64,000 nt of DNA. Origin: an uncultured Verrucomicrobiae bacterium (GTDB lineage: Bacteria > Verrucomicrobiota > Verrucomicrobiia > Chthoniobacterales > Xiphinematobacteraceae). The notes below the pieces were generated by a model, which was not told where the DNA came from, ran no database searches, and saw only the letters and a list, made by a program, of their open reading frames with translations. Both the position numbers and the translations under genes were made by a program. The stretch covers positions 384,001 to 448,000 of the forward strand of contig CAVPNI010000004.1 in assembly GCA_963706715.1 (NCBI GenBank), written 5' to 3'. This document shows, piece after piece, positions 51,767-52,013 of the stretch (position 1 is its first letter; each line of letters starts with the position of its first letter).

Positions 51767-52013
51767 TATAGCAAGGCCCGTATAAAATGATCATGGATTT
51801 GACTGAAATTTTGGCTCCAGGCAAGACGTAAAAAAGAGGCCATATCTGTAGATGCGGACTATTTTTTGCAACAAAGCTTGGAGGCAACACCTGGCCGTGG
51901 GAACGGCCGGGGTAGACTTGCCGAAGGCAAGCCCCGAAGGGGCGAGACTCAGCGGGGCTGAGTGAGTCAAAAGGGCGGCAAAGGCGTAATCATTTTATAC
52001 GGGCTTTGCTATA
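51767..52013. mobile_element. MITE, TATAGC family, subtype C (247 bp, module at 51888-51970)
   Basis: Inverted copy of 25286-25532 with a couple of substitutions. Confidence 0.9.

Follow-up and report, generated by a model that had tools for sequence, protein, structure and literature searches.

A four-hairpin insert of IS630-type MITEs in a Verrucomicrobiae bacterium, probably related to the core of tRNA-linked repeats and a candidate for movement as folded single-stranded DNA

How did a short, structured segment come to lie inside some copies of a MITE and to be missing from others? The question is raised by positions 51767..52013 (+ strand) of a 64-kb window, which is the whole stretch of DNA analyzed here and comes from an uncultured Verrucomicrobiae bacterium. 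These positions correspond to an intergenic IS630-type MITE of subtype C, with a deoxyhypusine synthase-like gene on one side and an OprB porin gene on the other. The MITE has TA ends and terminal inverted repeats (TIRs) of ~24 bp; it measures 247 bp when filled and 164 bp when empty. The filling is an element of 83 nt, the C variant, at 51887..51969 (+), which scored 81 bits with our covariance model R1. Owing to an AA repeat, this register is equivalent to 51888-51970. The boundary is best written between the two A's, because sites with a non-A second base show it to be there.

An initial annotation had placed five inserts at 1221-1314 (+), 8804-8896 (-), 25329-25411 (-), 51888-51970 (+), and 58494-58576 (-), and had described three insert-free MITEs at 9951, 28480, and 61512, a CAA direct repeat at the insert junction of subtype C, and four hairpins in both the A and the C inserts. 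All of this was borne out. The other filled MITEs are two of subtype A with A-variant elements (1100..1357, +, with the end pairing GC/GC described below; 8761..9234, -) and two of subtype C (25286..25532 and 58451..58697, both -). The empty elements at 9951..10115 (-) and 61512..61676 (+), each of 165 bp, had been regarded as products of insert removal; instead, they represent a third homologous MITE subtype (B). That at 28480..28643 (+, 164 bp) is a C-like variant, and exact empty C and A elements occur elsewhere in the genome. The MITE at 8761-9234 has a length of 474 bp because an unrelated MITE of ~215 bp with its own inverted ends is nested in it at about 8933-9147 (17 BLAST rows in the genome). 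About 50 bp past the end of the host MITE lies a short group II intron piece without an ORF (~9283-9702; Rfam Intron_gpII 9558-9702).

The host MITEs themselves are ordinary. The genome contains 130 MITEs with paired TIRs and 61 unpaired ends, and TA was found at both ends in 129/130. The TIRs are shared with an 885-bp element that has matches to HTH_Tnp_IS630 and DDE_3 in its two reading frames. In their TA ends and in TIRs common to an IS630 transposase element, the hosts resemble IS630-derived MITEs such as the RUP and Correia types. The passenger insert is a separate entity, which is also present without a MITE. Among the 118 paired MITEs of <=345 bp, the insert is present in 31 copies of subtype A and absent from 3; in subtype C, 26 copies carry a C-type insert and 30 are empty; and subtype B has 15 empty copies, 1 filled at site 1, and 1 filled at site 2. 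The whole genome carries a heavy load of mobile elements, including IS630, IS3-like, and other IS frames, many RHS-like frames, 11 IS110 matches, 13 tyrosine recombinase matches, and a multicopy group II intron frame.

The fold of the insert consists of four hairpins and a long-range pairing of 2 bp named P0. Hairpin H1 (51890..51911, +) has a GGGA loop and holds the left end in its base; 8/8 of its pairs covary. P0 joins the dinucleotide 3' of H1 (GA, 51915..51916, +) to the two bases immediately 5' of the terminal AA (TC, 51967..51968, +). Hairpin H2 (51917..51931, +), seen in both fold and covariation, and hairpin H3 (51932..51942, +) are capped by C-GAA-G triloops; H3 and the adjoining CGAG form the most conserved sequence across the four-hairpin family. 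Hairpin H4 (51947..51963, +) is closed in most relatives by tandem G.A pairs, not by Watson-Crick pairs. Members of the family are ~70-95 nt long, and the inserts in the MITEs of this genome have 83-94 bases. Folded as DNA, both inserts were far more stable than their 200 shuffles, with a z of -4.7 for the C insert and of -4.0 for the A insert. The linkers, previously called invariant, are identical between A and C, but GGGGTAG and CACC vary across the family.

The covariation supports selection on this structure. In a sequence-only MAFFT alignment of 39 copies, 88% of cells were paired compared with 71.5% after shuffling and with 30-42% for slid-partner controls, and double changes were found in 125 cells versus 44 in shuffled data (0/500 shuffles). 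Among 90 later copies, in an alignment fitted to the model, 95.5% of cells were paired, with 413 double changes versus 106. Covariation was seen in all four hairpins and in P0. The latter was paired in 82/82 copies (GA/TC 73, GC/GC 5, GG/TC 3, GT/AC 1) and in 69/75 later nonredundant copies (GA/TC 52, GC/GC 15). Of the alignments, A2 and A3 had been fitted to the model, and many members of A2 were gathered by a pattern fixing the 3' end. GC/GC replaces GA/TC in several lineages, including the A variant of the window. The proposal of a structure-selected mini-element with precise ends is thus backed by covariation, and we consider it highly probable that the insert is a real, structure-selected element that has been mobile at least over evolutionary time.

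Is the selected structure one of DNA or of RNA? C-GNA-G triloops account for 83/191 triloops on one strand and for only 2 on the other, and tandem GA/GA closes H4 in 47 copies. According to two sources, the stability of GNA mini-hairpins is far greater as DNA than as RNA (PMC13037366, PMC3201870). However, 78/83 of the triloops have the form CC-GNA-GG, which is also readable as RNA cUNCGg on the opposite strand. Counts of G.T and A.C were even (41 and 37). The loop types therefore favor a fold of single-stranded DNA and, given the UNCG reading of the opposite strand, do not prove it.

An RNA route, in which a structured transcript would be reverse transcribed or reverse spliced into new sites (a reverse transcriptase of group II introns being one example) and cDNA would be the source of precise loss, appears quite improbable to us. 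It could draw on the GGGA loops, which also fit GNRA loops of RNA, on the group II intron sequences of this genome, and on three RHS and one ORF6N insertions in sense orientation; moreover, according to a preprint, rtT RNA is processed from the tyrT operon transcript (bioRxiv 10.1101/2024.07.17.603846). The GNA triloops and tandem G.A pairs on the same strand speak against it, as do two antisense insertions in IS3 and the occurrence of both orientations within one MITE. In addition, the insert had no Rfam ribozyme or intron match, and its sites show neither a target duplication nor a tail.

The annotation had suggested looking for the module outside MITEs, and it is indeed present there. With R1, 78 matches were obtained in this genome (150/513 candidates scored). 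At site 1 of the MITE, an insert is present in 57 elements of subtypes A and C. Site 2 contains a third insert variant in opposite orientation (7 full copies), and site 3 contains a fourth variant (1 copy). One full copy, C1:613031-613113, is free of any MITE and lies 9 kb from any TIR, and many further sites were found in relatives. Three MITE sites, the solo copy, and many unrelated sites together show repeated independent insertion, as had been surmised.

In the order, the right-end pattern was detected in 34/301 genomes, and the reversed control pattern in 0. Public matches of the right-end pattern came from Chthoniobacterales and two Chlamydiia, and 37 viral stretches, including phage contigs, carry it. 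R1 had matches in 28/40 further genomes, and 20, 30, 42, and 80 copies were counted in four genomes; a phylum-wide model search, with 30 candidates per genome scored, was positive in 5/151 genomes. Two pattern scans of metagenomes gave 0 matches, and a phage collection yielded chance matches only. Twelve Bacillaceae-type matches, 1 gammaproteobacterial match, and the viral matches L060, L070, and L078 were discounted because they belong to another repeat or arose by chance. The Bacillaceae-type intergenic repeat shares the right-end pattern (L118, L121, L123, L127, L132, L133, L137, L138, L141, L143, L159, L162), and two of its records are titled Pseudomonas.

The hosts of these copies are diverse. 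In a relative from another family, another TA-ended MITE holds two sites in opposite orientation. Other copies lie in 7-bp and other short tandem repeats, and head-to-tail arrays comprise up to five copies. Coding-gene hosts are RHS (three times), ORF6N, and IS3 (twice), in which the frame continues if the break is read as X. Where the host is a tRNA sequence, the copy interrupts the anticodon loop or the T-loop of a partial duplicate, and the intact gene lies next to it. The frequency of copies in repeats and dispensable genes probably reflects survival and passive amplification.

The idea that the module is intron-like did not withstand these data: tRNA insertions are found only in dead duplicates beside the intact gene, and coding insertions are out of frame, two of them (IS3) antisense. 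A self-splicing or tRNA intron would be expected in the sole functional copy of a gene and in sense, unlike these tRNA and IS3 insertions.

Several copies have unusual surroundings. At L335 (5093-5380) and L161, the insert resides in the anticodon loop of a duplicate of the 5' half of tRNA-Ser upstream of the intact gene, a layout that mirrors the usual 3'-half duplicates. Copies at L190 and L331 lie within large tRNA arrays (12 and 11 tRNA genes). At L321, L323, L333, L335, L339, and L340, copies are nested in or abut other copies, often in opposite orientation. At L030 (900-3029), amid cassette-like repeats, two opposed copies have an integron-type integrase gene as their neighbor. In polysaccharide gene regions at L262-L264 (genomes G133 and G117), copies are grouped between genes for small nucleotidyltransferases, HEPN-like proteins, and PIN proteins, and one of them appears to split a HEPN-like frame.

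Junctions were then used to define the target. The base 5' of the element is A in 68/86 sites of a first set, about one site in five starting with another base, and in 71/75 sites of a later set. At the left junction any of the four bases can come second, and on the right the end reads CAA. The A is preceded by G or C in 72/86 sites, and in the 86 sites G never follows the right-end AA. Target duplication does not exceed a single A at most. In IS3, in RHS genes, and in the 7-bp array, a base other than A stands second; here the pattern of the host agrees with insertion between two A's if this base is assigned to the element.

Insertion between two A's is also a feature of tRNA-linked repeats (TLRs, RtT; RF00391). 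In E. coli, each tyrT repeat is a duplicate of a tRNA 3' end with a four-hairpin insert between two A's of the T-loop. K-12 has 18 RF00391 matches, and matches were present in 31/141 gammaproteobacterial genomes, 7 of them above the cut-off. At nearly all of the 30 RF00391 loci examined, such a T-loop insert follows a tRNA or tmRNA gene. The TLR layout, behind a tRNA or rRNA gene with 18-19 bp identical to its 3' end, is seen in relatives from Chlamydiia and Gammaproteobacteria. Like the inserts studied here, TLRs have a four-hairpin core with CCC-GNA-GGG, a CGA linker, and a GAGT(C)AA end. End pairing also recurs in them, 5' GGAC with 3' TCA nine times and GAAC with GTA 12 times. They differ in that they have been described as repeats or small RNAs, not as mobile inserts, whereas the copies of the window are dispersed in MITEs.

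The initial annotation had mentioned similar inserts next to tRNA 3' ends, and this link is supported, since R1, which was trained without any T-loop copy, matches TLR T-loop inserts, including those of E. coli. Its matches coincide with the ends of the inserts (lowest E-values 4e-4, 8.6e-4, and 0.004), and it gave 27 matches at E<=1 in 86.8 kb of T-loop insert loci, where the E-values are rough and the loci were preselected by RtT similarity. Three TLRs of E. coli K-12 reached E 0.003, and the tyrT (rtT) repeats themselves scored only 12-14 bits. T-loop copies of Chlamydiia scored 41-42 bits with R1, and the RtT model covered two of them end to end with 27-29 bits. The window copy had no RtT match, the RF00391 gathering score of 45 bits not being reached; the 64-kb window contains no tRNA, and its copies lack the tRNA 3' duplicate of the TLR layout. 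At gathering level, Rfam recognized only the group II intron fragment in the window. The insert had weak matches, one of them to AaHKsRNA22 (RF02902, E 4.6), which is probably also among the closest known systems. A plasmid collection searched with the rtT insert returned enterobacterial records only.

The insert is likely to be related to the TLR core; the case for a homologous structured core shared with TLR/RtT is of moderate strength given the rough E-values. A passage of PMC8144298 lists 22 TLRs with "no known function" and dates their discovery to 1978; part of PMC7542023 likewise gives no known function for RtT and reports that RtT copies differ between strains. In the literature covered, which includes few subscription papers and not the original rtT papers, we met with no account of the core as a mobile element at dispersed sites.

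The explanation that we prefer, with a probability of roughly 0.6, is that the insert is a noncoding, four-hairpin relative of the TLR core that has moved as folded single-stranded DNA between A's with the help of an enzyme acting in trans. For the mode of movement taken by itself (folded single-stranded DNA, trans-acting enzyme), we lean slightly toward this view. H1 would fold the left end down beside the linker and P0 would pin the right end to the same linker, so that both ends could come together at a single junction and be joined there by single-strand transfer. As a target, A|A alone would suffice, usually with G or C before it. The element would have landed in the IS630-type MITE at least three times in this genome, and the MITE would then have multiplied it passively, giving rise to about 70 of the 78 copies. 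At essential tRNA genes, only insertions into local duplicates would persist, and the TLR layout would be accounted for in this way.

Which enzyme could perform such a reaction? The anatomy of the insert resembles that of IS200/IS605 elements and of REP/REPIN-RAYT systems: it has no TIRs, no target duplication, strand-specific subterminal hairpins, precise loss, and end bases paired with an internal "guide". A nonautonomous derivative of IS200/IS605 or RAYT, inserted and excised precisely by an HUH Y1 enzyme with P0 as the guide-to-cleavage-site pairing, would account for these features and for the head-to-tail arrays. Guide-like pairing 5' of a hairpin with terminal bases is described for IS200/IS605 and TnpA-REP in part of PMC8266576; in IS200/IS605 a tetranucleotide guide pairs with the cleavage site, and in the family studied here the two P0 positions covary whereas the remaining guide positions show no conservation. 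Two copy-rich genomes possess many Y1 genes (12 and 19). The terminal TCAA of the insert is identical to the right cleavage site of IS608, a further point in favor of a Y1 enzyme.

Nevertheless, we consider a Y1 origin unlikely. The insert forms four hairpins in one folded unit, and its target is A|A only: a fixed tetra- or pentanucleotide at the left end is absent, with only the last A and the G/C bias (72/86) in its place. The GTAG motif, which had been taken for a RAYT signature, is found at the respective place in only 27/82 and 11/75 nonredundant copies, with ATAG, GGAG, and GCAG as common there. For TnpA-REP, passages of PMC8266576 and PMC3733652 describe GTAG as essential or site selecting, and the former also gives CT or CA as cleavage dinucleotides; judged from their sequences, our junctions are A|A. 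No Y1 transposase was detected in this genome with Pfam and our own profile of 16 proteins. In fragmented draft assemblies (93-97% complete), Y1 was absent from seven relatives with 10-25 copies and present in four without copies, and no copy lay closer than 1.5 kb to any of the 18 Y1 loci tested. The suggested association with RAYT/TnpA therefore fails, since copy presence does not follow Y1 and this genome lacks Y1. In sum, the insert is similar to a single-strand element of the IS200/IS605 type in anatomy and fails on target rule and enzyme.

Returning to an enzyme acting in trans on the folded strand, other candidates were surveyed. An IS110 derivative would have an identical core dinucleotide at both junctions, which was not found: the second base varies on the left, and the right end has AA. 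IS110 was present in 8/20 carriers and 1/11 noncarriers and did not track with copies, and neither did integron-type integrases. PF13495 occurred in 28/31 genomes and was uninformative. Clustering and Pfam scans of 264 neighboring ORFs (145/159, 43/112, and 76/125 of those listed) brought up no recurrent transposase. Single neighbors were an integron-type integrase (L030), IstB (L242), Rpn (L326), DDE (L022), and IS3 (L194). In a search for split ends enclosing a gene, for which the left-end profile was too weak, inspection by eye showed a left hairpin immediately upstream of nearly all right ends listed.

More broadly, and only tentatively, the family may belong to a cross-phylum class of minimal single-stranded DNA transposons with self-joined ends, inserted at A|A without duplication by an enzyme that is neither Y1, IS110, nor DDE, with TLRs as stranded copies. 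A passage of PMC8144298 describes TLRs as lacking a function since 1978, and dispersed copies with filled and empty sites make the question testable. Exact ends, the A|A target rule, a P0 that lends itself to disruption and repair, and genomes in which copies number in the tens and the enzyme can be sought provide handles for this. If the mobilizer is new, a new single-strand cut-and-join activity with a scarless, nearly target-free substrate of ~80 nt would be at hand. Furthermore, "sRNA" families of Rfam (RtT, AaHKsRNA22) may be mobile DNA repeats.

Finally, filled and empty MITEs were compared. They share private changes four times in subtype C and twice in A, making ~6 events in all, a count that homoplasy or gene conversion could lower. 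Shared private changes were used for this count because the backbone tree did not resolve the subtypes internally. The C consensus haplotype comprises 15 filled and 9 empty copies, and filled/empty pairs of C haplotypes are C4:304953/C1:675568, C1:316555/C1:398748, and C3:585607/C2:344373. Since the insert type follows the backbone type in 57/58, these are losses and not fresh insertions. Repeated precise loss, which the initial annotation had considered, is thus supported by filled and empty MITEs with common private haplotypes. Reads of two low-share DNA sequencing runs covered no junction. The exact loss is more likely due to fold-assisted replication slippage at a short direct repeat than to an enzyme, because this genome has no Y1 enzyme.

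For this genome alone, one could propose that the element, inert here, entered site 1 a single time long ago and that its presence or absence was later shaped entirely by gene conversion and enzyme-free deletion among MITE copies. The A and C modules are 72% identical and their backbones 73%, which fits one old or two site-1 insertions, and the insert type tracks the backbone as stated. At the C junction there is a direct repeat matching in 6 of 7 positions, the base on the right-hand side is retained in one empty C copy, and ragged internal deletions are seen in a few cases. Slippage assisted by the fold is the simplest cause of the losses in view of these features. However, such a history leaves sites 2 and 3, the solo copy, and the many sites in relatives unexplained, and copies in other genomes resemble module C more closely (84-86%) than module A does. 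As a full account it strikes us as rather doubtful; it is compatible with our preferred explanation as far as the losses are concerned, and there it has been partly adopted.

Deletions involving two copies were also observed. Mini-MITEs of 108-138 bp at C1:165028, C1:85478, C2:525021, and C3:342130 keep only the right ends of inserts, showing that they arose by deletion between opposed site-1 and site-2 inserts and that doubly filled MITEs existed. In genome G007, an IS3-like gene (L194) carries two inserts 360 bp apart, and two other copies of this gene (L217-L220) are without the segment between the inserts and have one insert left.
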